Shown here one piece after another: positions 36-63,363 of a stretch of 64,000 nt of DNA (positions within the stretch are counted from its first letter, which is position 1; every line of letters begins with the position of its first letter). Location of the stretch: NCBI GenBank assembly GCA_964106645.2, contig OZ067051.1. The stretch is one strand, 5' to 3'. The position numbers were made by a program, and so were the translations under genes. The notes under the pieces were generated by a model. That model made no database searches. It saw only the letters and a list, made by a program, of their open reading frames with translations, and had not been told where the DNA came from. This DNA is from Podarcis pityusensis. Lineage: Eukaryota.

Positions 36-1643
36 GCTTTATTCAGAGGATCCCAAGGAGGCAATAAGGCAGTGTGAGCTACTCCTGGGTGAGCCAGACA
101 TCGACAGTGCCATCCGCCTGGGAGATGTTCTCGGCTTCCTGGTAGAACACCACCTACAGGTCCAAGAATTCCAGATGGTGAGTGGTCCAAGCTCTTTCAA
201 GGGTATTTCAATAGAGACAAGCCTCCTTGATAAGACATGGGCAGACCCATTCAAAATATTCAGCACCACACAAGTGTTGTTCTTGTGAGATTGTATGACC
301 ACCGATAATATGTGGTGGTACAATTCTGCATACTATTTTGTATGCAAAATACAACAGAAGCATAATTGAATTCTTTCTTGCATGTATTTTTAGAACTCCC
401 TACACACAGAGAGCTAGAATGTCAGGGAGCAGCCCTTCCCTCAAGTACTAGTTTTCTACCTGTGAGAATGGGGAATATTCAGGCATGCAGATCTTCCACT
501 TACTCCAGTGATTCTTTTAGGAATGTGTAGGTCAGCTCTCAGAAGCACAAATGGAAAATAGCTCACTAGAAGTGTAATGTCTAAACCAGTCCTGAATAAG
601 ATTATTATATAGTTGGATGGCAGGAGGTGGCAGTTCCAAATATAATTTATAAACATTATCATCAGGGGATATTTCTTTGCTCTTACCAACACCTGGTGTG
701 CGGGGAGGAAGGGGGGAGCCACAGACAAGCAGAGGAAACAATTGTGTTGAACCATCTGGAGATGCAATGATTCATTTGCTAAGAGCAGGAAGTGTCAACA
801 TGACCTAGTGTAAAATAGGGAAGGCAGAATTACTGGCTGTGGGCGAAAGGAACTGCTCCTCTGGAACAGCCAGGTGCTCTCTAGTCACATGGAATTCAAG
901 CAAAAAAATGAGCTGCATTAAAAGACACTGCGTGGCAGCAAATCTGTTCTGCAGACAGATCCTGCCGGACTATTAGCCGTCTAATGCCAGGTTTCCCAAA
1001 TAGTACTGCTAACAGTTCTGTAACATCTACCTATACACTGCAACATCTTTAAACAGTCTGTCTCTTGGCTTCCAGCCCTTTAATGCAGGTTCTAACTATA
1101 TGAACATGAAGGAATACAAATTCTAGATATTATGGAGCCTTGGGAATCACTCATACAGCTAATGAAAACCAGCATCTCACAACCCTTCTGCTGTTGGTAT
1201 AGCTATTAGAAAACTCCTTAGTCAGATGTTGAAAACCAGTGGATATGGTTTCACAAAGACAACTCAAATCCGTGGTTATGATTGCACTGTTCCAGTATAA
1301 GCAGATAACGGCTTACAGTCTGAGCTTAAAATAGCTTGTCAGTGCCACAGTCACCTGGAGGTAGATTTTTTTAGTTCATTTTACCATTCTGTTCAAGTGA
1401 GAACAACCCTTGACTAGGACATACTTTTGTTCTCCCTAGGCCTACCGGTACCTAGAAGAGTTGCGGAAAAAGATTCCCTGTGTCAACCTCAATTACTATG
1501 TGAGCCAACAGACTGTGGAGGCAGTCCACAGGGGACTGGGCATTCCTCTGAGCCGAAACACTGCCCCAGAGAGGGTTCGCCACAACAGCATGGAGGAGAA
1601 AGGAGTGGAAGACGAAGTGGCTGATGAAGCAGAGGCTTCCTAA
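36..1643 (+). CDS. IFT140: Intraflagellar transport protein 140, last two coding exons (36..177, 1440..1643); gene continues upstream of the window
   Basis: AG|36..177|GT encodes [49 protein letters not shown]|1440..1643 encodes [53 protein letters not shown]...AEAS*. This matches the IFT140 C-terminus as I recall it (QCELLLEEPDLD, VHRGLG, VRHNSME). The phase-0 junction is consistent. Confidence 0.95.
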
Positions 1644-15100: not shown

Positions 15101-18100
15101 CAACTACCATCAGCCCCAGCCAGCACACACATGCTAGGTGGGTCTGATGGGAGCTGTAGACCAAAAACATCTGGAGGTCTCAAGGTTAGGGAAGGCTGCT
15201 GCAGGTGGACTATCCCACCCTATGCTGGGCCACTTCTCAGCTGATCTCTATTGGCAAGACATCCTACTGATCTCACCACATCTCAATAAACTGCAGTTTT
15301 ATGACATTCACACCAAGATAATAGGTTCTATCCAATGGTGGTCCTGTGCAGAATAGTCCCACTGAAGAGAATGAATCTTAGGCTTATTCATTTCAATAAG
15401 TATACTGTGAGTAAGACTGGTACCGGATACAACCAATTGCCGTGGCCACCCTGTGAGCATCTCCCAGGAAGTCACCCAGATTCCACCATGAAGATTTTGA
15501 GGTCCAGAGGCCCAAGATGCCAGCTTGGTCCTTTTCTCTCTCCCTTACCTTGTCTGTCGCTCTGTATTTCTGCTTCTTTCAGATGAGAGAGGCAGATCAG
15601 AATGGCCTTGCTGATGTACAGCTGCTGCTCCGCTGGGGAGTGCTTCACAGCAGTGCTGCTTCCCCAGGTCTCCAGCAGCTCTTTCAAAACCTGCGTTAGA
15701 AACCTGAGTGTTGGGTTCAACGTGTCATTCTGCCCCTGTCCCCACAAGCCTCCTTTTGGGGCCTCTTAGCATAATAACCCAGCAGTGACCGACTCCCTTT
15801 GTCCACCAGAGGAGGCACCTTCACATTAAGTGCCAATGAACCCAATTCCACTTTGTATGAGGGAGTCTTCTGCTGGAGCCAGACCTATGCCTCTTAAAGG
15901 CTTGGTTAAGATCTCTCATCATCCCCTTTTTATCCAGAAGCAAAATTTGGGGGTGTAAAGACTCCCCAATTACCAGCAGCGTCAAGGAGAAGTAAGATGT
16001 ACAGAACCTCTTAGTCAAGGCAGTAACTCTTAATGTCTCAGGATCATCTGCCCTGTGCTTTACTAAGAAAGCTTTGCCCTGCATATCTGGGCTGAATTGC
16101 CATCTGAGGCCTCCTCTCAAGGGTTGGGCTCCAGGGAGACAGTCCCACCAGTGTGTGCAGAGCTTGCTCCTTGGACTCAGGATGTCTTGGGAGAAAGGGG
16201 TGTGTGTGTGTGTGTGTGTGTGTGTGTCTTTCTTTGCAACAGTCCCAGCTACAACCCCCCTGCCCTCCAGATGGAGCAGCCAAAACACAACATTCTCATC
16301 AATCTGCTGGAAGGAACACATGGGTGCATCTGCAATCCCACCAACTTCTTCAGTCGGTTAGTGACTATCGCCTCCTCTTCCCACCCTAGCAAGCTAAACC
16401 AGAAGAGGTGAGGATCATAGAATCATAGAGTTGGAAGAGACCACAAGGGCCATCGAGTCCAACCCCCTGCCAAGCAGGAAACACCATCAGAGCACTCCTG
16501 ACATATGGTTGTCAAGCCTCTGCTTAAAGACCTCCAAAGGAGACTCCACCACACTCCTTGGCAGCAAATTCCACTGTCGAACAGCTCTTACTGTCAGGAA
16601 GTTCTTCCTAATGTTTAGGTGGAATCTTCTTTCTTGTAGTTTGGATCCATTGCTCCGTGTCCGCTTCTCTGGAGCAGCAGAAAACAACCTTTCTCCCTCC
16701 TCTATGTGACGTCCTTTTATATATTTGAACATGGCTATCATATCACCCCTTAACCTCCTCTTCTCCAGGTTAAACATGCCCAGCTCCCTTAGCCGTTCCT
16801 CATAAGGCATCGTTTCCAGGCCTTTGACCATTTTGGTTGCCCTCCTCTGGACATGTTCCAGTTTGTCAGTGTCCTTCTTGAACTGTGGTGCCCAGAACTG
16901 GACACGGTACTCCAGGTGAGGTCTGACCAGAGCAGAATACAGTGGCACTATTACTTCCCTTGATCTAGATGCTATACTCCTATTGATGCAGCCCAGAATT
17001 GCATTGGCTTTTTTAGCTGCCGCGTCACACTGTTGGCTCATGTCAAGTTTGTGGTCAACCAAGACTCCTAGATCCTTTTCACATGTACTGCTCTCAAGTC
17101 AGGTGTCACCCATCTTGTATTTGTGCCTCTCATTTTTTTGCCCAAGTGCAATACTTTACATTTCTCCCTGTTAAAATTCATCTTGTTTGTTTTGGCCCAG
17201 TTCTCTAATCTGTCAAGGTCGTTTTGAAGTGTGATCCTGTCCTCTGGGGTGTTAGCCACCCCTCCCAGTTTAGTGTCATCTGCAAATTTGATCAGGATGC
17301 CCTTGAGTCCATCATTCAAGTCGTTGATAAAGATGTTGAATAAGACCGGGCCCAAGACAGAACCCTGGGGCACCCCACTAGTCACTCTTCTCCAGGATGA
17401 AGAGGAACCATTGATGAGAACCCTTTGGGGTTCGGTCAGTCAGCCAGTTACAAATCCACTGAGTGGTAGCATAGTCAAGGCCGCATTTTACCAGCTTCTT
17501 TACAAGAATATCATGGGGCACCTTGTCAAATGCCTTGCTGAAATCAAGGTAAGCTACATCCACTGCGTCCCCTTCATGCTACATCCACTGCGTCCCCTTC
17601 ATCTACCAGGCTTGTAATTATGTCAAAAAACGAGATCAGGTTAGTCTGACATGACTTATTTTTCAGAAATCCATGCTGACTATTGGTGATCACAGCATTC
17701 CTTTCTAGGTGCTCACAGACTGTTTGCTTAATGATCTGCTCCAGAATCTTCCCTGGTATTGATGTCAGACTGACTGGGCGGTAATTATTTGGGTCCTCTC
17801 TTTTCCCCTTTTTGAAAATAGGGACAACATTTGCCCTCCTCCAGTCTGCCGGGACTTTGCCTGTTCTCCAGGAATTCTCAAAGATGACTGCCAGTGGTTC
17901 TGAGATCACATCTGCCAGTTCTTTTAATACTCTTGGATGCAGTTCATCTGGCCCTGGAGACTTGAATACATCTAAACTAGCCAGGTATTCTTGTACTATC
18001 TCCTTAGTTATTCTGGGCTGTGTTTCCTCTGCTGAATCATTTGCTCCAAATTCTTCAGGTCGAGCATTGTTTTCTTTATCGGAGAAGACTGAGGCAAAGA

Positions 18101-21100
18101 AGGCATTGAGGAGTTCAGCCCTTTCTGTGTCCCCTGTTTGCATTTCACCATCTTCTCCTCTGAGTGACCCCACTGTTTCTTTGGGATGGAGAACCCAACT
18201 TGGTTTCAGTGCAATGGTGCTCCATCAACATCCAATATTCCCCAGAACTCGCAAATCCTCTCTCGCACAGGATATTCAGCATCTTGTGACAAGTGGGAGA
18301 GGCAACCTTATGAAAAGATCTCATCCACTGACAGAGAAAGGCCACTCTGAAATGACCACCCATTTATCTCACTTTTAAACCTTTAGTTTGTTAGCACACG
18401 GAAAAGGAGTGAAACACAGGCTGGCAAGATGAGTGGCTCTGGGGTCACTCCTCTTTCACTGTAAGTTAGTTCTGATGTGTTTTTTTTACATTACACATAA
18501 GAGGGCTGGGAAGGTACTCCTATGAACTCTACCAAGTTGCATGTTATCTCTTTCTCTCTCACATATATAGAAATATATTTTGCTAACCATTACCCTGCTT
18601 ACCTTGATCAGTAAGAGACGCCGCATGTTGTCCAGGGCTAGATATCCAAGGAGGTTCTGGAGCACCATAGTCTGTATCATACAGAAAGCAAACAATGGAA
18701 ATCACAGCAGACCCTTTGAGAAAGAACAAACTCTCTCAATATCTTCCGGTAAGCTATGAACTATAAACCAAACCAGGTGACTTACTGTTCAGATCATTAT
18801 ATGGGAATATGAGCTTGACAATGAATGTTCATAGCGGACCAATTTGTTGTAATTGTAAAATTTACAAATATGCTCAGTGTACCATTACGATATGCATTGT
18901 GTTGATATTGTAAAAGAAAATTAGAAGAAAAGAAAAACAGTGCATGCAATTTAGAAGAAGAGTTTGGATTTGATATCCCGCCTTTCACTCCCTTTAAGGA
19001 GTCTCAAAGCGGCTAACATTCTCCTTTCCCTTCCTCCCCCACAACAAACACTCTGTGAGGTGAGTGGGGCTGAGAGACTTCAGAGAAGTGTGACTAGCCC
19101 AAGGTCACCCAGCAGCTGCATGTGGAGGAGCGGAGACTCAAACCCGGTTCCCCAGATTACAAGACTACCGCTCTTAACCACTGCACCACACAGGTTTATG
19201 GTCAGAAAGCAGGATGGCAGGGTTATTTCCTTAAACCAGGGTTAGCCAATGTGATGTCCTCCTGATGCTGCTGGCCTACATTTCCCCAAACCTGCCTCAG
19301 AAGGGGCACCCTGAAACTTCTACTTGCAAGTCCAAGAGCACAAGCACCGCAACATCACAACTTGTAAAAACACAGGTCTCCCATCTTAGACATAGCATAT
19401 AATGCCATCCCAACAAACATGCTTGCCTCCTGATTAATGACATCCAAGGACTCTCACCGGATAGCTGTACTGAAGCAGCAGCATCTTCTGGGTCATCACA
19501 AATTGAGCCTTCTTGCTTTTGACAACCAAATTCCCCAACAATCGTGACAGCACGGCAGGTCTAGCAATACAGACAAAACAACATTTCAACCATGAATGTC
19601 TTTCTTCTGAATCGGTGCTGTTTTAAAATCACAACTGGATCACAAGACTAGATGATTCACAAATAGAAGTCTGGAATGTATTGGCAAAGCAAGACATGCA
19701 ATATTCAGGTTCCCGTCCTATAAGGGCAAATAAAAGCAAGAGAGATGTCTCTCTGCTCAAATCTGATATGTCTGAAAGACCACCCTTGGCCTAACCAAAC
19801 TTTTAAGATTCTTTTCAGGTGTGGTATTGGGGTGCTCCCACTGAATAAAGAGAGATGGACAACCACCAGAGAGAAGGCCTTTTTGGTACTGGCACCTAGT
19901 AATGGAACTCCCCTTCCCAGGAAGGCTTGCCTGGTGTCATCCCTGTGGACTTTTCAGTGCCAGGTAGAGACCTCTCTTGTTACCCAGGCCACCTAAACAA
20001 CTTATATTGCCAGGTTCTCTCCAGTTTTTAAGTCTGTGTTTTACATCTTAGAGGTGCTGTGACCTGTGTTTTTCTTGTAGTTATTTATAGTTCATAGTTT
20101 AACCGTCTTATTTTCAGATTGTTTTAAAGAGTCATTTATTGTAAGTTGCCCAAAGGGCTGTGTTTTATGAGGAGGCATACATACATACATACAAATAAAT
20201 AAATAAAATAAATAAATAAGCCTTCCTCCTTTCCAAACTTCAACAGCTGAGCAGGCTGAAAGGAAATCTAATTTGTACAGTGGTACCTCGGGTTACATAT
20301 GCTTCAGGTTACATATGCTTCAGGTTACAGACTCCGCTAACCCAGAAATAGTGCTTCAGGTTAAGAACTTTGATTCAGGATGAGAACAGAAATTGTGCTC
20401 CGGTCGCGCGGCAGCAGCAGGAGGCCCCATTAACTAAAGTGGTGCTTCAGGTTAAGAGCAGTTTCAGGTTAAGTACAGACCTCCAGAACAAATTAAGTAC
20501 TTAACCCGAGGTACCACTGTGGTGCAGGGGGAACCATTTTCAACTGCTGCAAGGATACAAGGAGGCATGACATGTGCCCATCATTCCACACAAAGGTTTG
20601 GCTGCTTACCCTGCTGCTGCCTGAACAAAGCCACAGACCACAGGTTCCACCCAGCGATCTGGCACACTCTCCACCAGTCGCCAGCATATCCTCTGCCAGA
20701 TGCAGTCAGACTGGGTACGATCCGTCAGGTGGGACACCAACACGTTCAGGATTTCTTCTGCATTCCAAAAGAAGAAGAAAAGGAGCTGCTTTGAAATCAA
20801 AAATCCTTTTTACTTCCTTATTTATTTATTTTTTTGGCCAATAGTTAAGATAATTTGGGTGGTGGGAAGAGGGGGATCTTTCCTGCTGTTCTTTGAGACG
20901 GAGAGCTTTTAAAAACATTTTTATAAGAATGCCCTTCACACATCATATAATATTGTTCTTCGCCACTGTAAATCATGGCATTATATATTCCTTCCATGGC
21001 ATTGTTCTTTAAAAGTCTGCCTCCTAGTGGCTGAAAAAGGGATAACAGCTGCATTCTGTTAAGCAGTGCTCAGTCTTAAGTGTGCAACATGTCTGTTGAG

Positions 21101-44231: not shown

Positions 44232-45933
44232 CCTTGAATTTCAAAACATTCTCTAACTTTGAAAGCTTGTTGTGGCAACATGAGTAACAATTCACACATT
44301 TCCTTGAATGTCCTCCTAACAGGGCAGAGAACCATAGAGGCAAAGCTTAGTTTCTGAAGACTCTACATAGACAAAATGCTCTAGAAATGGTGTGTAGGAT
44401 GTTATTAAGCAATGAGGGAAATGTGACCCTCCAGGCCTCTCTATGTGGCCCCATATACCTTCCTCTGGCCATGCCACTCACCAACCCTACTTCATTCCTA
44501 GCTGTCTTGGAGTGTTTTGGGTTGTTTGGGCTGGAATGTGTCCATAAGCTCTGATACTGCTTCTTGTTGGGTGGATGAAAAATAGAGGAGGGCTGGCTGT
44601 AAAAACTAGTCTACTCTGCAGAGGTAAAATCTGCATTCATTGCTCTGCCCGCTTCTGAAGCCCCTGCCCAGATGGAAATGAGGCCCTTAGTTTAAGAAAA
44701 GTCCCTTCCCCCGTCCCCCGAACTGGGGTGTCAAGATCTGGGACAGAGCATGCCTCTGTTCCACTTGGTGGTCAACCTTGCTTGATTTTACTTTGCTGCC
44801 ATCTGAGCCCCCAGGCCCTGCTACAGTAAACAATTCACAGCACTTTTGATAAGTGCACAGCTGCTTATCCTGTAATATTGTCACTTTAACTTGCTTTGTC
44901 CTTGGAATTTGTTTAAGTGCTGTGGGGCTGGCTAACAGTGTGGCCCTCCAGAGGCATTTATTTATTTAGCAGCATTTATATTCACTTAGTTTGCAATAAA
45001 ATCCCTAAGTACTTTCCATAAAATGGTATAAAATAGCAACGAAAACAGCAGACATAATAAAATGACCAAATTATCGTTAAAATCAACAGATGTTAGAAAC
45101 AAATGTACGCAATAAGACCAGTGTCACTGCGCTCCCAACTCCTATCGGCTTCACCAGCATGGCCAACAGCTGGGAGTTGTGATCCAACACCACCTGGAAG
45201 GCCACAGGGTAGCTATCCTGGTTTGTGTGATCATAGGGGAAACCTGAAGTTAGGAAGCTACCTAATTCTCAGCCAGATGGTCCATCTAGGTGTTCAGAAG
45301 CAGCCACCAGATAGAGCCCTATTCTCTCTTTCCCTCTCCCTCTCTCCTTCTTGTCTTAATGAGAACAATTTTATTCTATCCTTGTTTGTTTGTTTTCTCT
45401 TCCAGCCCAAAGTTCTGCTTAAGAAACAGAAAACTGCAAGAAATCAGAGAGGGATTTTCCCAGCGTGGCTTCTCTTCTTGTGTGGGCATTGAGTGGACAG
45501 GGTTAGACTGATGCTGTTAACTCCCGCCCAAGCGTTACTGGAGTCTTCCTTTGCTACAGAAAAAGGATATATATTTTTTAACTTCCTGCCCATCTTCTGA
45601 AGGGGAGATATAAATCCAAAAATACACAAGTGTTTGTTCCATGGAAAAGGCCATTGGCCAGCTCAGGAGCTGGTGATCTTTGCTGGATTTCAGAATGGAT
45701 TTAACCTTTGCAGTGGCTTTCTATAGGATGGTGCAACAGTGATCGTGACCTTGGAAGGAACACTGGTTGTTTCCCCAGCACCATTTTGCCTGTTTGACTT
45801 GCTAATCTAGCAGCATCCACATCAGGGTCTCTGTTGGCTGTTAATGTACCCTACCTTGAAAACGGCGTATTCTTCTGGAATGTAGCCACTGTCCATTTGA
45901 CTAAAGGAAGAGGCCAAAGTCCTTGGCCCCGCC

Positions 45934-48900
45934 ATGGGTCGCTTAGATGACCATGCCAAGAAACGGATTGTGGAGCTGCGCAAAGCCGGCTTGAGTTTCC
46001 GCAAGATCAAAAAGGTGCTGGAGCTGGACAACATCCGGGTCACCCCACAAGCCATCTACCTGTTCCTTAAGCGGAAGAACGTGGAGCCCAGCCAGCCCCC
46101 ACCTGTCTCTTTTCTGCAACCTGCTCTTGAGAATGGAAGCAGGAAGACTCTTGTGGACCAAGCTGGCTGGGAGGACAACCAGCTCTGGAAGTTACTGCAG
46201 GAAAACGAGACTGAGCACCATGGGCAGAGAGAGGCTGCTGGCTCTGTGGCAGGAGTTGGCCCAAGCTATGAGGTGCCGCCTTGTAACGGCCATTGTGATG
46301 GCGAGGAGCACATCAAAATAATTAGCGTGACTTCCTTGAGCAAGGATGGAGGGCCGTTTGAGAAGCAGAGTGCCTCCCATGAGGGCATCTCCAGCGGATC
46401 TCAGCTGGGCCAGAATATGGGTAAAGCTTTGCACAGCCTCTTTGTTCACATGTGCTGCTGGCTTCTGCTTGAGGCCTGTTTAAGAAAACTCCCACAACCT
46501 TTGCTCACAGCAACCACCCTCTGCAAGTGCAGGCTGTCAGGGGTCCACTTTCTATGGGTTTCTGGGCTGGAGGGTGAGTGACGGTTTAGTAGCACTTCTA
46601 AGGGGTAATAGCTTCTAGTTTAGTTCTGAGTGCCATGTGACCTATGAAGCCCTTAATGACCAGGGCTTAAGGCAGCAATGGGGTAACACCAAACCCATGG
46701 GCCTAATTCGTCCTGGCACATTGTCCCAATTTGGCCCATGAGGCTGTTCCTCAGAAACTGCTCCCACTTGCCCCACACTTGTCATATGTGAACATTTGTG
46801 TGGGGCAGGCACAGACTTTGCTGCAAATTTCTTTGCTAGTGGGGCTTCCTGTCAGTGCCTATTGGCTAATCAGCACTGATGGAGAGTTCAAAGGCGATTG
46901 ACAGCACTAAGGAACACATTAAAAATAAATGAATCAATTAACAATTATGGGAAGATGCATTCTTAATTGTCTGCATAGGCTTGGAGGAAGATAAGAGTTT
47001 TCAGGTGTTTAAAGGTTGAAACAGAAGGCAGCTGCCAATTCTCCACGGACAGAGTATTCCATAGCACTGGACTGACAATAACAGTCTGTTTTGTGTTGAT
47101 GTCAAATGAGCCTCACCAACTTGGGAGACAGCCATCAACACACCTGCAGATGATCTCAGTGATCAATCTAATGGTTCAGGCCGTCCCTAAGGTACCCTGG
47201 ACCTAAGTTGTTCAGGGCTTTGTAAATCAATACAAGGGCCCTAATCCTGGCTTGGCAGCAGATGAGCAGCCAGTGCAGATGTTTAGCAATGGTATCACAC
47301 GTTCCTGGCCATGTGTCCCCATCAGCACATCTGGGAGGCACCATATTGGTTTGCTACCCTGCTTTTCTCTGTTGGGATGACCCTGAGGCACCTCCACTTC
47401 TTTCTCTTCTTCACTTCCAGGTGACAACTGCCCAGGGCCAAAACCACCTGTGTCGCCCAGCTGCTTGACTCCATTTGCACCTGCAGTTCCTCAGCATAAT
47501 CTGAATGGCAAAGGGAAGGCCTTTCTGCCACCTGCCCGGAATCCTGCCTTGATTGTGAAGAGGAAGATCGTAGGCCGGGCCATCCATCTCCAGAAAAAGG
47601 TGGGAAGGGCACAGAGAGGGTGAGAGAGAGAGAGACAGAAATGAGCATGATTGGAAGCCCAGAATAGAATCCCAAGTTAGCCCTATTATTCTTGAGTAGT
47701 TTCATGCAACCCCTAGAATCAGTAGAAAGGATGGGTCTGGTGTCCTTCAGTGGGGTATGAGAGCTGATTCCCCCCCCCCCCCCCAAACATGTAGGAACCA
47801 ATGCGACCCTTTGGATTCAGATAGCGCATGGGTAGACCAGTCTGAAAAGCCCGGGACACAAATTTTCATGGCCCTCTAGTGGCTATGGTGGCTCATTTAC
47901 CAGAAATACCAGTAATGTAGGTAGCTGTGTTGGTTTGATGCAGTCGAAGTGTGCATGCACATGAAAGCTTATACCCAGAACAAACTTAGTTGGTCTCTAA
48001 AGTGCTACTGAACAATTTTTAATTTTTATTTATTTATTCAGAAATAATGTACAACTCTGGAAGTTGTATCCTCGATTCTGACCAGACCAAGCCTCCTAGA
48101 GCAAAATAAAAGAGGGTGGATGCAGGATGGAGAGAAGTGCTGCATGAGTGTCAAACCTCTGCATTGTATCTAGCCAAGTGTTACTCAGAGTAGACATATT
48201 GAAAGTGACTGGAGATGACCCTCTTGCCTTTTGCGTGGCTGGGATGTAGCTCGCTCCCAGAAGGGAATGTGGCCCTTGAACTGAATGAAAGGTTCCCCAC
48301 CTGCACTTTTTTCATCTTCTGGAAGTACAGCTCTTAAGCAGAAACTGAGTCTTCTCCCTTGTCCGTTAGGCAAATGTACAGAACGGGCAGAATTCATCTG
48401 GTTCTACACCCAGTTTGCCTTTCACGGTGAGGGTGCAGCCAACTGGCCATCCTTCCAGGGGGACAACTCCTGTCCCGATGGCATCTTCTGGCTGCTCTGC
48501 ACATGTAAGTGATGTAGAGTGTGCGTGCTTTAATAGCGATATATGTCAGAAAGCGTAAAGGCTCCCAAGCAAAAGGAGGTTGATTGTTTTTTGGGGGAGG
48601 CGGGGGGTGGGAGTTGAAGGATTGTGTGCATTGAGGTGGTAAGAGAGTCTGTAAAAACTTCAGAACCCAGTTGGGGAAGAGTTAGGGCAGGGGGCCACTG
48701 ACCTTTTGGGAAATGCTTGGAATTTTGAGAAAGTGCCATGGGCACCAGTCACAAAATGGCTGGCGTGAGGGCAAGGGGGTAATTGCCACATCATCTTAAA
48801 GGGAAGAGACAGAGACAGGGCCACAAAATGGTGTGGGCGTGCTCTCCCTCTCCCCTTGCAACAATGGGGGGGGGGAGGCAGCTACATCAGCCACCACCAT

Positions 48901-52199: not shown

Positions 52200-53315
52200 A
52201 TCAGTGAAGTTAGTTGTTACTGAACCAGCAGAATGTTTCTGCAGCATAATAAACACCAGGTGCTGTAGTGGTGACCAGCAGAGGGCAGTAGCTGATCAAA
52301 ACACAGGACCCTCACTCTCTCAAGTCCCATGTGCGAATACAAGCACCATATAAAATCTTCAAGATAGAAACAAACAAACAAACAAACAAACAGGAAAACA
52401 CTGGTGCAAACTAGTGGCTCAAAAGAGGCCTATACAAAGCAGGGAATTACGGCGGTAAAGAAAAGGGATGGAGGAGACATGCATTTGGTGCCAAGTGTCG
52501 CAACTCTTCTTTGGTTTGCTTCTAGGGGAGAATGAAATGTTGCAACAGATAAACCCTTTCCTAAGGGTTTTTTGCCTCTGACTCAGCCATGGGAAGCTGC
52601 CTATCAAGACCGATCATTAGGTCATCTAGCTCACTACTGTCTACACTGGCGGGCAGTGACTCGCCAAGATTTCAGGCAGGGGTCTCGCCCAGCCCTAACT
52701 GGAGATGCCAGGGATTGAAACTGGGACGTTCTGCATGCTAAGATGTGCTCTACCCACAGCCCTTGCCACATACGAAATCAAACTCTCTGCCCATCTAGCC
52801 AAGTACTTTCTACTTTTGACTGGCAGCAGCCCTCCAGGTTCTTGGCAGATGCCTTTCACAGCACCTGATCTTTGGTCCTTTTAAACAGAAGATGCCATTG
52901 GTTCTAGCGCCACCTACTGTTGGCCCTCCCTACCTTCTGCCCTACCAGTCCCAATGGGGACCAGCCACCGCTGGAAGAGAATTATAACCCTGCGTACACA
53001 AAACAAAGCAAAATCAAGGTTTTGCACTATGAAAATCTGCAAAACACTCCCCTCCACACCAGATACACAAGAGCAGTGGGGAGATAAAGCAGAAAATGAC
53101 CTGGAAACACAAGTTTCATGCATCTCCCAGTAAGGATGGGAAGTAAACATACAACAACAATAAATAAACCCAGGGCTTTCAAACATCCAATGTTACATTC
53201 TTGGTCCATGTGTGCAATTGCTGGACAACCAGCACAGCTGCTTTTCAGAGGTTTTTGCTGCTTCTCATCAGTTACAGAAATAGCTTTTTCCTGGTGAAGG
53301 CTGTTCCCAGGAGAG

Positions 53316-56300
53316 TCAGAAGTCTGCCATAAACTCACAGCGGTCGTTCAGCTCAATGGTGGTGTAATTCTGAGGCCGTCTGGGGAGGAGGGGAAACACA
53401 CACAGACACCAGAGGAAATAAGTTAAAGGAAAGTGGCATGACTTTTATTTGTTTAATCGGACGGGGAAGCGACGCAAAGCAACCGTTAATTGCATTGCTT
53501 CACGTACAGTGCTTTCATTATTGCAAACCAGAACATTTTGTAACAAGGCTATGCATTTAGAAAAATACTTTCCTGGTTTTTGCTTACAGAGTCTGAACAC
53601 ACTGTAGATTCCAAATGGGTGGGGGTGTCAGTACAGCATGGAATTTATTCTTAGAATCAGAAAACTGTTAGTTAGAAGGGACTCAAAGAGTAATCTAATC
53701 CAACCCCCTGCAACTCAGGGTCTTGTTCCTGAATCGTAGAACAGGACCAACTCCATGTATGAAGGGGGCCTAATAAGCACCCCTATGTCTGCACAGATCC
53801 AAATATCAGCAGGCAGCCCTTTTTTTCCTCCTGTTTATTTATGGCTGGAAGTGGGGGCAGATGGGAGGGCTTGCTGCTAAAGAAGGATGCCACTGATGTT
53901 AGCTCAATGGCAGGGCATCTGCTTTGCATGCAGAAGGTCCCAGGTTCAATCCCTGGCATCTCCAGGTAAGACTAGGAGAGAGCACTGCTTGAAACCCTGG
54001 AGAGCGGCTGCCATCATTGCAGAGACAATATTGAGTTAGATGGAGTTGATAGAAGGCAGCTTCCCATGTCTGTCTGATGAGCATCAGGCAGCCACCCATA
54101 TGTTGTGGGACCACAACTCCCATCATCACCCTTGGCCTTTGGCCATGCCGGTTGGGGCTGATGGGAGCTGGAGTCCAGCTACATCTGCAGAACATCACAT
54201 TCGCAACCTCTGCATTCCCCATTTGGGCACAAAAATCACGATGTCTGTTGCATGCACCAAAAGCAGCAGGGTGGGGGGGATGTGTCAGGAAGGGCCGCTT
54301 TGCAGCTGCTTAAGGGTGGTGCCTGCTGATGCTGAACTTGAGGCAAGGACCAAGGCTGAGCAAGAGAATGATAGCATTGCGGTGGAGAATTGGGGAAGTC
54401 AGTTCGTTGCACAAGAGCATCAAATCCACTTTAATTGCACAACCTGCATTTGCCGGTATGTGATTTGAATCCACCCCAAAGCAGCAGCAATTTGGAAGCA
54501 TCTTCAATGGGATGCCAATGGAAGGATTTTACTGTTGCTATTTGCTGTGCAGATGCATCTATTTTTCCCCACACTTGCATTCCCCGCCCCCCCGGTTGAT
54601 AGCAGAGGAGGAAAGTGTTAAACCTTTCCTCCTGCTGCATTGTGGTCCCTATTTGGAACAACACAAACAGAGAGTTGTACCCAATGTTAGTCCTACTCAG
54701 AGTAGACCCATTAAAAATGCTTATTTATTATACCCCCCCCCCTTCATCCTAAGATCCCAGGACGGGTTACATCATTAAAACACAAGACTAAAAACAGTCT
54801 AAAACAAGTTCCAAACATAAAAAAGAAAGTGGCTTCTAAAACTATACACCTCAAGTGTCAAAAGCCGGGGGTAAAGAGATGCCTTGTCAGCATTCACCAG
54901 AAGCTGCACAATGAAGGTGCCAGACACACCTCTGTGGGGAGGGAGTTCCACAGCTTAGGGGCCACCACAGAGAAGGCCCTCTCCCGCACTGCTGCCTCAG
55001 CACCTGAGAGGGTCTGTAGGGAAGGAGGTGGTCCTTCAGATATTTGAGGCCTGAGTCATTTAGTCATTAAGACATAGTCCACTTATTATCATTAATTTCA
55101 ACGGGCCGACTCTGAGGAGGACTTAGTTGGATACACCGCGGAGCTTCAATTTCTTTGAAGACAAACGAACACCTGATATCGCTTCAAACATTGGATTTAA
55201 AGTAATATAGAGTTAGACCCTTATACACAGAAAGCTTTAAAGCATTTCATTTCCTGAAACAGGCTGAGTAGAAGGAGACTTGCCATGCTAGAGTCTGAAA
55301 AACCCTGCTGTAGACAGACAAAATAAAGCAACACAGCAAAAACAGACACACAAAGGGGTGGAGGAAACGGGAACTTGAGTTGTGGGGAAGCTTGTTGAAA
55401 AGCCCCTTCGGGTTTTTTAGCTTAGTTAAATCGTTTTAAGCAGCTACTGGAACATGCTTGAATTTCCAAGTGAGGAAGCAGAAAGTTGCATGAAGCAAAA
55501 TGGGATGTGGGGAGGACCATTAGGATGGATTCTGCGTAATGCACACAAACTTCCCTTGTAAATTCACATAAAGAGAACCCTACCATAAAGGAGTGTGACA
55601 TTATAACTAACTGAGGCTAACACGTTTGTTAGGGGAACTGTAAAACAAACACACTCTGTACTCCTGAGGAATTAGTTTGTAACAGAGTACATGGAGAACA
55701 CAGAGTGCTTTGTTTCACGTTTTTAAGCAAAACATGTTAGGCTTAATAAATTACAATTTACTGCACTGAAGATTTGAGGAACTCTTCTTGTTCCTTCTTA
55801 GCTGATTCTTCTTTTTCTCCCTCCTTTTCTTTCACAAACAGCTAGGCAATGGCTGCCTCTGGATGGTCATATCTCAGCTTAATAAAGCAAGACAGGAATG
55901 AGCTTTGTGCCCTTGCATTCAAGAGACCTCCTGTTTTCTCCGAACCAAGAAACTATGGTTACCACCTTCAGAACAAGCCAGGATCTTAGATTAACTTCTA
56001 ACCATGGTTTAAACTCCTGGCTTGCTCTAAAGCTAGGAACCATTGTTTCCTGAAGAATCAGGAAACAATGGCCAATTGGAGACTTCTGCATCGCGTTCAG
56101 GTGTGCCACAAAGGAAGGAGAGAAGAGGCTACATTCCGGGGCACATGGCTTATTCAGATCATTAGAACCGGGCCATTAACATAGTAGGTCCAATGTAAAT
56201 TTATCTTTGCTATTATTATTTTACTGCTTTTATACAGCAACTCCACTTTCTGGATGACTCACTAAGCAAAAAATGAAAATGAAAATTGTAATGCAACATT

Positions 56301-59300
56301 AAAATATAGTATAAAATGATAAGAACTAAAACATATTGGAAAGCAATTTTAAATTAATTTTTTAATTGAGCCTGCCTCAATTTCATGGCTTTCCGGTGCC
56401 AGGAAGAATGAGTGCCAATTACCCACTTTTACAGTCCACAATTCACCCTTCTAGGTGGTCTCTAGTTGATCTCCCAAGCACTAGGAGAGCAGACGGGTAG
56501 GAGGGCTGTGTATGGCAGAGTAAGAACTGCAGTGGAGTTTCAATCTGGTTTGTTAGACCCTCCAAAATATGCAGGGGGCTGAGGCAAAGGCTGGCACACA
56601 AACCAGAAAGCAGAACTGCCGTTGCTCCTTACCTTTTGATGCAATAGAAAGCTGTTCCAGCTAAAAGAAGTACAAGAAAGATGGACCCCACAACAATGAG
56701 AGCAATCTCCCAGGCTTGAAATGAAGCTAAGAAAAAAAGAAAAGGAGGGGGAATAATTATTATCAGTCTGTCTTGGTGAGCTCCCTACAGCTTTGGAGAT
56801 AGCTTTCTAGAGACAGGTTCAAGAGACAGGTTCAATTTCAGGCATCTCAACAGAGCGCCACTGCCGAACAGTGCAGACATTACTACCTCCTCTAAAAAAT
56901 GTCTTTATTAAAGGTTTTTAAACAATAAAACGATTCAAACCCAACATAATCTTTACCTTTACATACATAAAGGTAAAGTACATATAAATTTATATATTTA
57001 ATATATTTTCCTGCTACACCACAATGATCACTAAGCAACACGACCTACAGGTGAATTTACATCCTCATTGTCATTTGGCGCATGCAGGTAGGAGAGAATC
57101 TACGCAGAATAGATTCTATTCCTTCCAAAGTATGCAATGAGGATAAACTGTTCATCTATGTATCTTCCCTCCCACCCACCTCTGCCTCCCAACACGATAT
57201 TTGGAATGTTTTGATTGTTTTGTATTAGTTAGCTTGTTTTAATGTTCTGTCAGTATTATTGAATTTTAAAGTCAAACAAAATAATTTGGGCGCCTCTCGT
57301 GTCGCCACTTCCTCGCAGCCATTTGGGCCGTTTCCCCATCCGCTCACCCTGAGACCTCTGCGCTGTTTTTCCCAGAGATGCACATGCAGCGTTTGCTTTG
57401 AGGGGCTTCCCGTCCACGGCAAAGGGGTGGGGACTTGAGGAAAAGTGAGAATGCCACTGAACGAGGCGCTGACGCTGTTCAGGTGACCTGGCCCACACTT
57501 GGCCAGAGACTTTCAGGGTGGAATTAAGGCAGGTGAACGTAACCCCTATATGGAAAGACAAAAAAGAGGAGCGGGGGTCTGGTTCAGTTCAGAAGTACCA
57601 AAGGGAGAGCGGGGGGCGGGGTTATATAGCATCAAACCAAACCTAGGATAGGGCTGTAACAGAAAGACAAGGTTGTATGAAAGAGGAGTTTCTACAGATA
57701 CAGTGGTACCTTGGGTTACATACGCTTCAGGTTACATTTGCTTCAGGTTACAGACTCCGCTAACCCAGAAATAGTACCTCGGATTAAGAACTTTGCTTCA
57801 GGATGAGAACAGAAATTGCGGGGCAGCGGCGCAACGGCAGTGGGAGGCCTCATTAGCTAAAGTGGTACTTCAGGTTAAGAACAGTTTCAGGTTAAGAACG
57901 GACCTCCGGAACGTATTAAGTTCTTAACCCGAGGTACCACTGTATACATAAACACCAAGATCCTTTGCCCCTGCTTCACTCCTCTTCAGATTTTTATTTT
58001 ATTTGTTTTTACACCTTTCTTCTAAGGAGTTCTATTTTTATCTTCACCATTTTTACCCTCACAACGATCTTGTGGGGTAGGTTAAACTGAGAGCTATTGG
58101 GCTGGCTCAAAATCACCTGGTGAGTGTCATGGCTGAGTGGGTCTCCCATGTCCTAGTCAAGCATTACACCACACTAGCTCTCAATATTTCCTATTTCAGT
58201 AAGTTGCACGCTTTATTGGATGCGAGTTGTTGTTGTTACATTTCTATCCCACTTCCACTCCCCCAAAGAGCTCAAGGTAGCATACACAGCGCTCTCTTTC
58301 TCTCAATTTTATCTTCACAACAACCCTGTGAGGTAGGCTAGGCTGCGAGACAGTCACTGACTGAAGGTAATTAAGCAAGCTTCATGGCTGAGGGGATTTG
58401 GACCCTGGTCTCCCAGGCCCTAATCCAACACTCTAACCACTACTTTACACTGGCTCCAGGTGACTCGTATACCTGCCTCCATTGTAAATGCTGATTTTGT
58501 CTGCAGTTTCCTCACAATTCCGATGGACTGTCTGCTTTGTTTGGTCTGTTTAAAGCGCCATTTGTACAATTGGAGCTGCATCTGCACCATACATTTAAAG
58601 CACTTGAACTGCTCCCCCCCTCCAAAGCATTCTGGGAATTGTAGTTTGCTAAGGGTGCAAAGCATTGTTAGGCGACCCTAAAATACCGAAGCTGAAAAGA
58701 GCAGCATAAAACGCTTCAGGCCAGCAAACCAAACCACAAAATCAAATGTATCACAATTCAAATAAATAAATAAATAAATAAATAAATAAATGCGGATTTA
58801 AAATAGCAGTATCAATTTAAAATCCATCCGGTTTTCTTTACCCAAGGGTAGATTTAAATACAAAAGTCTATTAAGCCTCCTCTAAAAGAAAGCAGGGAGG
58901 AAAACAAAAACACCTCTCAAAGGAGATATGTGAAAATTAATTATACAAGGGAAGGGGAACCGTTGGCCCTCCAGAGGTTGCTGAACTATAACTCCCATAA
59001 GCCCCAGCAAGCAGGACCAGGGATGATGGGAGTTGAAGTTCATCTGGAGGGCTAAGGGTTCTCCACACCTGACTCATATAAACTTTGTGAGCTGCAGCAA
59101 GACTGTACCTCCCCAACAGCTGTCTCTACTAGGCAGCTAACAAATCTTAAGTTCCTATGGAAGTTGGATGATGTTTTGACACAGACCGTGTAGATAGCAT
59201 TGGCAGATGCCACAGAAGCAGCTCTCCTCCATGGATCTCACTAATGCTTGCTGGAGACTTGCCAACATCTGTGGGTTCTGAGGCCACATGGAACAATCTG

Positions 59301-62300
59301 CCAGGAGGAGGAGGAGGAATTAAGAGATATTGAGCCAATCCCCTTTGCAACAACGTGGTTCATGCAAAACACACAGCAGAGAGAGTCCATGCTCTTTTCT
59401 TTACTTTTCTTTAAAAAAAAAACAATTTTTAAAACAAATATTTCTTTATTAAACATTTCTAAGGTACAAATTTAAAATTAAACAAATGCAAAGGGTGTGT
59501 TATGAACATAACAGACATAGGACAGCAGTCTTAACATTTCCCTCCCCCTTTATGTTTTCTTTACAGGGTTTCTTTACAAAGTTTTTTATTCATCGTCACA
59601 ACCACCCTGAGAGGTGGGTTAGGCTGAGAGGTAACAACTGGCCCAAGTTCACCCAGTAAGCTTCATAGTTGAATGGCGATTTGAACCCTGGTCCCCCATG
59701 CCCTAGTGTGACACTGTGGCCACATTGGCTCTCCAGAATACACTGCCTGTTCTTTTGTTTGGAGGTCAGCAGCATCCTAAATCACCTTTCCACTCTCACA
59801 AGAAAAAGAAGATAAGCTTCTCTTACTGGGGGTCAGCAGGCAGATTTCAAGATTCAGGAAGAGAGATTCCTGTGGGCAGTGATTCTCCAAGGCAGGAGTG
59901 GGGTCAGAGACTGCATAGATTTTGCCGCAGGAGGGACAGCGGCTCAAGGACAGCGGTCTGCAAAAGAAACAGAAAATCAACGAGCGTTCCCCATGGGATT
60001 TCAAAAACATATACATTTATTTCAACTTGGCATCAATTTATTGCATATGTTAAAGAAAAACAACATAATCAACAACCTTCCCCCTTCTACTTCATAAAAT
60101 CATAGATCTATAGATTTGGAAGGGACCTCGGGGGGCAGCTAGTCCAACCCCCTGCAATGCAGGAATCAAAGCTAAATAATCCCTGACATATGGCCATACA
60201 ACCTCTGCTTGTTATTTGAATCCTTTGGTTCGCATCCTACCTTCTGGAGCAGCAGGAAACAAGCTTGGCCCATCTCCTGTGTGACAGCCCTTCCCATACT
60301 GAAGATGGCTACCATACCACCTCTCATTCTTCTCTTCTCCAGGCAAAGCATATCAAACTCCCTTGGTTTCCAGACACTTTATCATCTTGGTTACCTTCCT
60401 CTGTACCCTTTGCCGCTTGTCAATATCCTTCTTTAACTGCGGTGCCCAGAACTGGACACATAAATAAGTCACCTGGAAGTGAACCTAGCTTCCTTTTCCA
60501 TGAAAAGTGACTTCTTGTTACATGCCAACCAGAAGCCAGGGGTTGGAACAAACATTCAGGAATTGTGGAAAAGGAAATTAACTCTGGCTGTGCAGGGGGA
60601 GGGTAGGACTGCCTGCAAGCCTGAGGATTTGTGTGGGGTCCTTTCTGCTCATGCATGTAGTGGTAAACCATGGTTTAGTGTTACATGTGTGAACACAGCC
60701 ATACTCTCTCCTCTTGTCCTTCTTTAAGTCTGTCTCTCTCCAGGTCCATAATTCCTCTCTATGATCAGGACCTCCTTTTGGCTCTTTATTGTTAAGAGAT
60801 AAAGCTAACTTCACATGCTAACCAATTGGAGGTCCCATAGATAGCATGATGAAGTCACAACAGGATGCAGCCAATTATATTTTGATATACAGTGGTACTT
60901 CTGGTTACATATTTAATTCGTTCCGGAGGTCCATTCTTAACCTGAAACTATTCTTAACCTGAGGTACCACTTTAGATAATGGGGCCTCCCACTGCCACCG
61001 TCGTGCGATTTCTGTTCTCATCCTGAGGTAAAGTTCTTAACCCAAGGTACTACTTCCGGGTTAACGGAGTCTGTAACCCGAAGTGTTTGTAACCCGAGGT
61101 ACCACTGTACAATAATGTCAGAAAGCAAGTTCTGAATAATGACTCGGTAGAGCCTTTTGCCCCTGTTCACAGCCCTTCCCCATAGCCAAAAGGAAGAGAG
61201 GACACTTTTTAAAATGTTTTTTTTGAAAGAGCACTCCCAATATTGGGATAGAAATGCAATAAACCTCACCTGCCTCCTTCCCTAGATACAAAGTGGATCG
61301 GTTCAGAAAGACGAGGATGAGCTTGGCTTGCACCCGTCTCCCATGTATAAACTGCAACATCTTTGAGGTGCTCCTCCATAGTGCCATTAAGAGCATGCCT
61401 GGAGAGTGCCACAGAATGGGTCACTTCTTGCAAGGAGGGATTGCTCCAAACAGAGGGCATCACTCGTTGCTCTGGAAACACAGATGGTATAAACACAGTC
61501 AAAACCAAGGAATGTGTGAGTCTTCTCCTTCCTGCTTCTTGACAACTGAAGAGTTAGGTGGAGAACCTGCGGCTCTCCAGATGTTCAAAATGGCCTCTAC
61601 CCTTTGGCCAACACGCATCTCTAGCTTGCAAAGTATGCCGCCACATCCACACGTGCATGAGAGATGAGAAAGGGTCATAGTGAAGTGTTCTATCCCTGGC
61701 ATCTCCTGGTAGGACTGGGAAAAGACTCTTGTCCAAAACCCTGGAGAGCCGTTGCCAATTAGTGTTGACAATGCTGAGCTAGAGGGACCAACGATCTGAC
61801 TCAATACAGTCAAATCTCACTTCCCAAGCACCTCCATTTTGGAACATTTCAGCTCCTGAACCCCGGAAACCTGGAAGTATTCCGGTTTTCAAACGTTTAT
61901 CGGAAGCCAAGCATCCAACGTGGCTTCTGCTTGAGTGCAGGAAGCTCCTGCAACCAACAGGAAGCCACACCTCAGTTGTCGAACATTTTGGAAGCCGAAC
62001 AGGCTTCTGGAATAGAAGACGTTCGACAACCAAGGTTTGACTGTATAAGGCAGATTCCTAAGTGTGAGGAAGGCCTCATCTGCCCTCTACATTTAAAGCA
62101 CCATCGTAGCACTTTACACAGCCGCAACTTCCTCCAAGGAATCTTGGAAACTGTAGTTTGTTAAGGGTGCTGAGAAAGACTAGGAGACCCCTATTCCCCT
62201 CACACAGAGCTGCAACTCCCAGAGTGGCTTAACAATAAATTACCCTTCTTAAGGAACTCTGTGAGGGAAATAGGGGTCTCCTAACAACTCTCAGCACTCT

Positions 62301-63363
62301 TAACAAACTACAGTTCCCAGGATTCTCTGGAAGGAAGCCATGGCTGCTAAAGTGGTACAATGCTGCCTTAAATATATAGCGCAGATGGGCCCAATGTCTC
62401 TCACACAGCAGGGGAGTTCGTTAATAACATTACCCAGCAGGGTGAATGGTATGGAGCTTTCTGTGCAATCCACACTTCCTGTGCAATTCACATGCGCTCC
62501 TCTACAGCCCGAGATTGCAACCTGGTAAATCAGCTGCCAAGGTTTTGGGCTGCGTGTGATAAAGGGGCCCATTAAGCTTTTCAATTTGTGGAAGCTGAGC
62601 AGAAAAAGGTTATCTGTGTGTCAACTATGGATAGGGTAGAAATTCAATTTTTGTTTGCATTTTATTGACAAGCCATCTAATTTGCACTTCTCAAATCAAG
62701 ATGCAAACCAAAACACACTTGTCTTCCGAAACCCACACTTCTCCAATTTTTGCAAAATACTCTTGTAAAGTGTGGACAGTTTTCAGCAACTTAGGGGAAA
62801 GCATGCATAAAAATGACTATAGTAGTGAAAACATACAAAAATGAATTATGGGAAACTGATTAGGGGGAAAATGTACATTAGTTAAAATTGCATTGAATAA
62901 TGTGCTTATTAGCAGGTATCTTCACTAAAACGTGGCTGAATTAAAATTTGCAGATTGCTTCAGAAATGTGGAGAAATGAATTTAAGATTGGGGAAAAAAT
63001 GAGATAGCGACAGAAACTTGGACTGACAAATTCATCCATCCCTAGGGTCAATGTCATACCGTGAGGCTTGATAGTCTTGGACTGTCCTTCTGGCAAGATG
63101 AGGAACAAACCATTGCTTCCAAATGTGCCCTGCAGATCAATAGTGCTGTATGGTATGGCACTGTGCCCGGAAAAGAACATCAACGTGTACCCTTTCAAGC
63201 TGACACCAGGATGCCCTTTCAGCTCTATAAATCGGTACAGAATGGTGTGGTTGGCCATGCCCAGTTCATTGATTACGACTGAGTGGTTCTGGGGCAGTTC
63301 CTCTGTGGAATTTGAGCCAGGAGGTGGGCAAGTATTTTCCTGGGAAGGAGTCATTTCTGTCAC
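53316..63363 (-). CDS. Uncharacterised type I membrane glycoprotein with lamin-tail-domain-like extracellular module; 3' part only (367 aa), 5' end outside the window
   Basis: Exons 63060-63363, 61270-61471, 59827-59957, 59187-59297, 57348-57545, 56633-56726 and 53316-53379 join in frame (1104 nt). Motifs: VVINEL...FIELKG...LKGYTLMFF, SLSRC...PTP..EN.C, a Cys cluster CFCGICQCYL, the TM helix WEIALIVVGSIFLVLLLAGTAFYCI, and the tail KRRPQNYTTIELNDRCEFMADF*. Confidence 0.8.
53898..54068 (+). mobile_element. tRNA-headed SINE
   Basis: A box TAGCTCAATGG and B box GGTTCAATCCC, followed by a body shared with copies at about 21810, 26290, 52620 and 61680. Confidence 0.7.
57701..57942. mobile_element. 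Tigger-like MITE (family A)
   Basis: TIR CAGTGGTACC with TA TSDs at 57699-57700 and 57943-57944. Confidence 0.85.
60100..60462 (-). mobile_element. Degenerate CR1 3' fragment
   Basis: Aligns by eye to the 3' end of the CR1 at 16414 (GTCCAACCCCCTGC, GGTGCCCAGAACTGGACACA). Confidence 0.65.
60890..61107. mobile_element. Tigger-like MITE (family A, opposite orientation)
   Basis: TIR CAGTGGTAC and TA TSD; the internal sequence is the reverse complement of the 20278 and 57701 copies. Confidence 0.8.
61807..62043. mobile_element. TcMar-type MITE nested in a tRNA-derived SINE
   Basis: Termini CAGTCAAA...TTTGACTG with TA TSD; SINE sequence resumes on both sides. Confidence 0.75.
62071..62392. mobile_element. 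Long palindromic MITE-like element
   Basis: Imperfect inverted arms (CATCTGC.../...GCAGATG; ACTGTAGTTTGTTAAG/CTTAACAAACTACAGT). A half copy lies at about 58575-58680. Confidence 0.6.

Follow-up and report, generated by a model that had tools for sequence, protein, structure and literature searches.

Lamin-tail domains (LTDs) of animals are known as nuclear or cytoplasmic modules. The window analysed here, 64,000 nucleotides (nt) of contig OZ067051.1 from Podarcis pityusensis (assembly GCA_964106645.2; G000:C14:16740001-16804000), holds the 3' half of a spliced gene that encodes a different arrangement: a glycoprotein that is predicted to span the surface membrane once and that carries four lamin-tail-like repeats along with two SEA-like domains. 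By sequence comparison, the gene is the lacertid orthologue of the uncharacterised zebrafish si:ch211-183d21.1. Our best reading of the protein, at about even odds (roughly 0.5), is an endocytic ligand-capture receptor. The main reason for preferring endocytosis is that two different sorting-type signals occur on one ectodomain family.

The gene is real, annotated in databases, and apparently unstudied. A preliminary description of the window called the protein unnamed; databases carry the family as an uncharacterised LTD protein, si:ch211-183d21.1 (zebrafish) or MGC145260 (Xenopus). These are labels only, and the proteins under them share full-length similarity, four repeats, a transmembrane helix, and a tyrosine-containing tail with the lizard protein; in ray-finned members the first of the two SEA-like domains is missing. 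The present analysis adds the protein architecture, its internal duplication, the range from sponges to echidna, the close bacterial kinship, and the tail signals.

Gene model and protein architecture

The complete gene, obtained by adding 100 kb of adjoining DNA, lies on the minus strand and has 13 exons encoding 1072 amino acids (aa); its start codon is 8 kb past the window end. The in-window exons are the seven recognised previously: all have GT-AG sites and share one open frame to a TGA stop, and both end coordinates, 53316 and 63363, are exact. The exons are as follows, with the repeats numbered R1 to R4.

63060..63363, minus: exon 7, aa 706-807; end of R3, glycosylated linker, and first half of the degenerate repeat R4
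61270..61471, minus: exon 8, aa 807-874; middle of R4
59827..59957, minus: exon 9, aa 874-918; end of R4 with a conserved Cys pair, first strand of SEA-like domain 2
59187..59297, minus: exon 10, aa 918-955; helix 1 and Cys cluster of SEA-like domain 2
57348..57545, minus: exon 11, aa 955-1021; remainder of SEA-like domain 2 and stalk; 3' junction bridged in 4/4 runs
56633..56726, minus: exon 12, aa 1021-1052; transmembrane helix; both junctions bridged in 4/4 runs
53316..53379, minus: coding part of exon 13, aa 1052-1072 and stop; cytoplasmic tail with Y1057-x-x-I-E-L
52367..53315, minus: 3' untranslated region, about 950 nt; far end placed where two RNA contigs stop, 134 letters past 52501
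72252-71376, 71003-70784, 69944-69787, 68084-67983, 66721-66515, 65569-65019 (window numbering continued), minus: exons 1-6, GT-AG, past the window end at G000:C14:16805019-16812252

Splice sites of exons 1-6 were picked by match to P0001, a database 'LTD domain-containing protein' of Podarcis lilfordi, to which 1056 of the 1072 residues of the model are identical. Junction contigs came from reads of a near relative (four runs from four studies, among 15 runs guessed to be RNA). Contigs of all four runs bridge the last two introns exactly (53379/56633 and 56726/57348, with CT..AC ends), and one contig of 4539 letters has a length fitting the transcript of this gene. Two of the six in-window junctions proposed earlier are thereby bridged; the other four are predicted from identity to P0001 and matching intron positions.

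An artefact or pseudogene is ruled out by the open frame, the GT-AG sites, the spliced contigs, and the orthologues. A VINE look-alike at about 62523-62420 is not an exon, since P0001 and its relatives have exon 7 spliced straight to exon 8. Searches of the lizard genome with R1 and R4 for paralogues matched this gene only. In the leader, 159 nt before the start codon, lies a likely splice acceptor (L003:8253-8411, minus), which suggests an untranslated first exon further upstream; the leader also holds a short upstream open reading frame.

The encoded protein begins with a signal-peptide-like segment, continues with two rounds of conserved LTD-like repeat, degenerate repeat, and SEA-like domain, and ends in a transmembrane helix and a short tail. 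Its parts are:

aa 1-22: hydrophobic N-terminus, a probable signal peptide by hydropathy and orthologue N-termini
aa 38-214, 224-403, 537-718, and 734-902: LTD-like repeats R1, R2, R3, and R4, about 177 aa each
aa 407-508 (after R2) and 904-1009 (after R4): SEA-like domains, about 105 aa each
about aa 1027-1049: single C-terminal transmembrane helix, followed by a 22-aa tail

The type I glycoprotein layout, the single helix, the 22-aa tail, and the VINE...FIEL...LKGYTL and SLSRC...PTP...N-C motifs of the preliminary description are thus borne out, and the full gene supplies both the hydrophobic N-terminus and the repeated units it expected upstream. Its Cys-rich juxtamembrane region is better described as a SEA-like domain, present twice.

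R1 and R3 are 49% identical; R4, the most degenerate, is 26-28% identical to the other repeats. All four introns of the first half have a counterpart among the five of the second half, matching in alignment column and phase, and in trees the vertebrate R1 and R3 group as a single clade. By these shared intron positions and this clade, the protein is an internal duplication of a unit comprising conserved repeat, degenerate repeat, and SEA-like domain.

An extended lamin-tail repeat with bacterial kin

The Pfam LTD profile (PF00932) matches P0001 over two stretches, with 69.7 bits (cut-off 34.3). The scores of single exons, 32-33 bits, stay slightly below the cut-off, and exon 7 alone, which encodes the first part of R4, has no Pfam match. 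AlphaFold2 modelled P0001 with a mean predicted local distance difference test score (pLDDT) of 77.6 and a predicted template-modelling score (pTM) of 0.44; R1 alone gave 87.9 and 0.86. Lamin B1 and A/C Ig-like domains take ranks 1-4 in the Foldseek list for R1 (best E 1.3e-3, probability 1.0), where no match reaches E 1e-3 or better. In VIA-align the top match to R1 is the Bacteroides protein BT_1938, of family DUF4876 (PDB 4q1z; Z 12.1, root-mean-square deviation (rmsd) 3.3, 170/177 residues aligned, 13% identity), followed by lamin B1 (Z 7.7, rmsd 2.9, 100 aligned, over residues 1-120); the next unrelated row has Z 5.5. R3 matches BT_1938 at Z 13.1.

Because the BT_1938 match spans nearly the whole repeat and the lamin match about 100 residues, the repeat is modelled as a lamin-tail core plus a C-terminal extension. 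The LTD-like fold proposed earlier therefore holds for the core, whereas the unit is an extended domain of 177 aa rather than the 110-aa LTD of lamins. Lamins A/B share with the lizard repeat the Pfam match and the Ig-like core. Unlike theirs, the lizard repeat is predicted to be extracellular, continues C-terminally for about 60 aa beyond the core, and contains a conserved Cys pair; the protein has a hydrophobic N-terminus and a transmembrane helix instead of a coiled-coil filament rod, and its repeats are 10-18% identical to lamin domains. LTD proteins also include LMNTD1/2. Topology and the 10-18% identity rule out a lamin or LMNTD paralogue. The difference from DUF4876 is also clear: no Pfam DUF4876 match was found, and BT_1938 is a bacterial lipoprotein whereas the lizard protein is an animal transmembrane protein.

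The membrane-proximal domain (aa 903-1009) resembles TROP-2 (Z 7.9, rmsd 3.0, 94 aligned), SorCS2 (Z 7.6), the MUC16 SEA domain (7.2-7.6), and SEA-type folds of the dystroglycan complex and GPR126 (Z 6.6-7.9 for the SEA type overall), and the strand and helix order of the SEA ferredoxin-like fold fits both copies. However, the unrelated ferredoxin-like Cas6 scores Z 7.3, and all these matches fall below the tool's caution level of Z 8; Pfam SEA has no match at E up to 1 in six family members. We therefore call the domain SEA-like, short of a proven SEA domain.

Other structural searches added little. Foldseek with the full-length model (pTM 0.44, domains not placed) and the ESM Atlas with the SEA-like part gave no usable match, and a PDB sequence search with P0001 found nothing. 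NTF2-related and calmodulin matches of the repeat profile in PDB were taken as chance. For R1, the ESM Atlas returned bacterial look-alikes of 170-180 aa.

A full-length search found 131 proteins. The best 120 of the 131 come from squamates, turtles, a crocodilian, birds, amphibians, lungfish, coelacanth, ray-finned fishes, amphioxus, and a brittle star. Orthologues from sauropsids, amphibians, lungfish, coelacanth, and ray-finned fishes are 35-77% identical along their length. A search with R1 against representatives at 50% identity gave 2562 matches at E up to 0.001. Among the best 150 of these, names were obtained for 29, and for one earlier match; they include sponges (Corticium, Oscarella, Sycon), Lingula, hemichordates, echinoderms, and echidna. 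The echidna protein (XP_038618171) is 40% identical over its full length and has the same layout; the preliminary description had recognised no mammalian counterpart. No therian, arthropod, nematode, cnidarian, or unicellular eukaryote is among the names seen, a weak negative because clusters hide members and the echidna was likewise missing from the full-length matches. Human and mouse are not known to have the gene. A frameshifted fragment suspected as a therian remnant (P0149) groups with grouse.

Members vary. Invertebrate proteins have 3 to 12 repeats, amphioxus having several members with 3-9; coelacanth has two paralogues (P0074, P0078) with four repeats each. Two Oscarella proteins carry an N-terminal Frizzled-type cysteine-rich domain before six to nine repeats (P0320, Pfam Fz E 3.5e-17; P0182, with a similar N-terminus). 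A Zootoca model (P0003) has three FN3 domains like those of LAR-type phosphatases between its halves, at about aa 525-810; it was treated as chimeric, since the first FN3 maps to another contig (C6) at 97%.

The closest relatives outside animals are bacterial. GTDB genomes contain 418 stretches encoding a relative; the 79 loci kept comprise 49 from Bacteroidota, 15 from Pseudomonadota, and others from Chloroflexota, Verrucomicrobiota, and further phyla. R1 is 40-46% identical to its best bacterial-type matches, and invertebrate repeats reach 52% against bacterial ones, versus about 17% between repeat and lamins. The bacterial proteins share the repeat motifs, often in tandem, and their N- and C-termini resemble secretion and surface-sorting signals. 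The likeness to secreted bacterial proteins noted earlier holds for EEP nucleases, found in 8 of the 34 bacterial-type proteins scanned, and fails for CotH, of which the same 34 gave no sign; other fusion partners are Big_5, PKD, DUF11, and Calx-beta. Some small bacterial-type proteins (P0152-P0173) consist almost entirely of a signal peptide, a single repeat, and a sorting tail, and would make suitable minimal models in the hunt for a ligand. Unlike these relatives, the lizard protein has no nuclease, and it has a transmembrane anchor and tyrosine tail in place of type IX secretion system (T9SS), PEP-CTERM-like, or similar signals. ExeM, the namesake of the nuclease group, itself has a short LTD of the 100-aa kind, unlike the lizard repeat. 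In Shewanella, the ExeM LTD is required for full in-vitro activity, its role being left open, as is the function of bacterial LTDs generally (PMC6085458).

In a FastTree analysis of 437 domains, 199 animal or eukaryote-like domains split from 238 bacterial-type domains (132 of them unnamed records classed by eye) with support of 100, and IQ-TREE on 62 of those domains recovered the same split (100/96). A rooting outgroup of 23 short bacterial LTDs was reduced to 14, nine being dropped as long, misaligned, or redundant. On that root the animal and extended bacterial domains form a clade (96/87), with animals nested among the bacterial domains. The extended bacterial domains never form a clade in 200 bootstrap trees, a result that depends on one basal row, and animals form one in only 45%. 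Approximately unbiased (AU) tests reject neither the bacterial domains as a clade (p 0.26) nor the other grouping, that of the animals (p 0.35). These comparisons support a single origin of the animal repeats with bacterial nearest kin; transfer from bacteria to animals is plausible as the economical inference, short of a result.

Tail signals and candidate functions

Vertebrate tails carry Yxx[IMF]E[MLI] in 99/100 proteins, counted where a predicted transmembrane helix is followed by a tail of at least 12 aa (16/116 were dropped). The tyrosine lies at a distance of 7-8 residues from the membrane. At least 95% of 55 orthologues retain Y1057 and E1061, and along the whole vertebrate tail only these two and R1052 are near-invariant. 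Among 21 named invertebrate proteins, a count that includes near-duplicates, NPxY occurs in 10 (nine as FxNPxY), FDNVLY in three, and neither motif in eight. The NPxY tails come from a sponge, Lingula, four echinoderms, a hemichordate, and amphioxus. FxNPxY is the internalisation signal of the LDL receptor, and NPxY signals are served by PTB adaptors such as Dab2 or ARH; YxxPhi motifs bind AP-2. The tail motifs thus favour uptake over adhesion, and the 22-aa tail contains no catalytic domain.

The ectodomain points in the same direction. Among 55 vertebrate orthologues, mean identity is 65% in R1 and 62% in R3, versus 48% in R2 and 38% in R4, with 60, 50, 13, and 15 near-invariant positions, respectively. 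All 103 vertebrate proteins with four repeats have a Q-N-G-x-D loop in R1 and R3, and not one has it in R2 or R4; the loop also occurs in 126 of the 132 unnamed bacterial-type domains, which were collected without using that pattern. The invariant columns common to animals and bacteria include several acidic or amide residues, which suggests a site for a cation or polar ligand. The selective conservation of R1 and R3, the restriction of the loop to them, and the variation of repeat number from 3 to 12 in invertebrates, as in multi-ligand receptors, are further reasons for the endocytic reading.

In the mechanism we envisage, R1 and R3 would bind an extracellular ligand, their invariant acidic residues and Q-N-G-x-D loop perhaps holding Ca2+ or another cation, while R2, R4, and the SEA-like domains would act as spacers. 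The tail tyrosine motif would recruit clathrin adaptors, so that the ligand is pulled into the cell. The ancestral signal would be FxNPxY, given up in vertebrates for the YxxPhi-type motif, with AP-2 taking over from a PTB adaptor (Dab2 or ARH). The repeat itself was likely acquired in the animal stem from bacteria, whose versions sit on secreted and surface-anchored proteins.

Known endocytic receptors offer a parallel. The LDL-receptor family, megalin, stabilins, SorCS, and amnionless share type I topology, tandem modules, and a short NPxY or YxxPhi tail, and SorCS2 also has a membrane-proximal SEA-like domain (the Z 7.6 match). Pfam finds no LA, EGF, YWTD, CUB, Vps10p, catalytic, filament, or EEP nuclease domain in the lizard family, and so the protein may work like LDL-receptor-type receptors, not as a member of that family. 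BT_1938 is, according to one preprint, the predicted substrate-binding lid of a TonB-dependent transporter (bioRxiv 10.1101/2023.03.17.533168), and its locus appears among iron-regulated genes in another report (PMC10434189). The fold match fits an uptake role and proves nothing.

Several points weigh against endocytosis. The lizard tail has no FxNPxY, nor any NPxY; near-duplicates are included in the invertebrate tail counts; and a YxxI motif can equally be a phosphotyrosine site. A common fold shows no function, identity to BT_1938 being 13%. Either direction of transfer is compatible with the trees (p = 0.26 for one bacterial clade). As for expression, the consulted tables of one zebrafish data set show no posterior lysosome-rich enterocytes or ileocytes with the orthologue (0%), 0-0.2% of anterior enterocytes, and 1-2% of other cells (PMC11906160), and a second data set lists it among the 50 transcripts most depleted in retinal macrophages/microglia (log2 fold change -10.3 versus other retinal cells; PMC6423051). 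If it is an uptake receptor, the protein is therefore not of the gut protein-uptake or macrophage-scavenger type.

The same retinal data, in which the gene is enriched in non-immune cells, would suit adhesion or matrix anchoring. On this view the repeats build a long stalk whose binding target is the stalk of another copy, a partner cell, or matrix, and the role of the tail motif is limited to recycling or sorting the protein. The SEA-type folds of TROP-2, MUC16, the dystroglycan complex, and GPR126 point this way as well, as do the long bacterial surface relatives with Big_5, PKD, Calx-beta, and DUF11; integrin tails, too, contain NPxY motifs. However, a uniform stalk would explain the alternation of conserved and degenerate repeats and the invariant polar loop less well than a small-ligand site does, and the vertebrate tail has no second conserved motif of cytoskeletal or PDZ type. 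We consider this the strongest competitor, though an unlikely one.

The near-invariant membrane-adjacent tyrosine would also serve a signalling receptor or co-receptor, in which ligand binding leads to phosphorylation of the tail and recruitment of an SH2 or PTB protein; the Frizzled-type domain of the two Oscarella members could be taken likewise. Yet Pfam finds no kinase or other catalytic domain, and there is no conserved immunoreceptor tyrosine-based inhibition motif of the standard consensus: two residues before the tyrosine the lizard has Gln, and a hydrophobic residue occurs there only in certain turtles and birds. We rate signalling as improbable.

Glycosylation raises a further alternative: the protein could be mucin-like and shed at the SEA domain, acting as a scaffold of the glycocalyx or of a barrier, or as a surface protein that binds microbes. 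The ectodomain has 14 N-glycosylation sequons versus 7.1 expected. The six noted earlier in the window (aa 723, 731, 743, 835, 918, and 962) are all present and exceed a shuffle mean of 2.0 (p = 0.008). A cleavage-like motif of the G-S-[VT]-[VI] type occurs in five of eight invertebrate proteins checked, and sponge-type and amphioxus members have Ser/Thr-rich linkers. However, the last 450 residues of the lizard protein lack the G-S-[VI]-[VI] cleavage motif, the first SEA-like domain has G-P at that position, and long Ser/Thr tracts are absent. Most of the sequons vary among orthologues: N918 is kept in 38/55 aligned orthologues, the other five in only 5-24/55. The tight conservation of R1 and R3 points instead to a specific binding site, and we find this alternative the least convincing of all.

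The wider version of the endocytic reading is an ancient, undescribed animal receptor family that, in the animal stem lineage, borrowed its binding module from a surface protein of bacteria, added the SEA-like domain and FxNPxY before the sponge split, and was kept as far as monotremes and lost in marsupials and placentals. This full scenario is doubtful, less probable than endocytosis itself. If true, it would give an extracellular lamin-tail domain its first tractable function in ligand binding, perhaps at a cation-dependent uptake site resembling the Bacteroides transporter lids. Each part has its own consequence: an endocytic role would add a new ligand-binding module to that receptor class; acquisition from bacteria would make a candidate transfer at the animal base; and absence from therians would mark a function kept by egg-laying mammals. 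The ectodomain of this conserved receptor-like family, which spans sponges, a brachiopod, deuterostomes, and echidna, is built mainly from a bacterial-type LTD, and the zebrafish orthologue makes ligand, cell type, and knockout phenotype directly testable.

The published traces of the zebrafish gene found by the searches are a row in one table (PMC6423051) and a single mention in a paper on a genetic map (PMC3098391). Its name was not found in the searched parts of supplements to PMC12768270, PMC8405809, PMC9901936, PMC8517238, PMC10662954, and PMC11906160 (files 4 and 6), which is no evidence on expression. The available sections of PMC7820862, PMC11083954, and PMC11431876 contain nothing tied to this family. 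Searches on the family gene names and on extracellular lamin-tail topics found no functional paper, most subscription papers lying outside their reach.

Neighbouring genes and repeats

The surrounding DNA contains the following features.

window 37-177, plus: IFT140 exon (Pfam TPR_IF140_C)
window 5460-5573 and 14753-14887, minus: TELO2 exons, convergent with IFT140
G000:C14:16850493-16851123, minus: nagA-like gene, probably AMDHD2, upstream of the LTD-repeat gene
L009:7346-7525, minus: V-ATPase c subunit exon, probably ATP6V0C, upstream of the LTD-repeat gene
window 17071-18224 and L010:27-1030, minus: LINE-type reverse-transcriptase fragments
window 45901-46578, plus: weak Tc1-like helix-turn-helix match

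A CpG-rich stretch near window position 27000 is probably the TELO2 promoter. The gene order is ATP6V0C, AMDHD2, LTD-repeat gene, TELO2. In human, those neighbours form two blocks about 1 Mb apart on 16p13.3, and from this separation the LTD-repeat gene may sit at a rearrangement breakpoint. Two of its introns contain copies of a high-copy interspersed repeat (window about 57700-57945 and 60890-61110), the first with very deep contig coverage.

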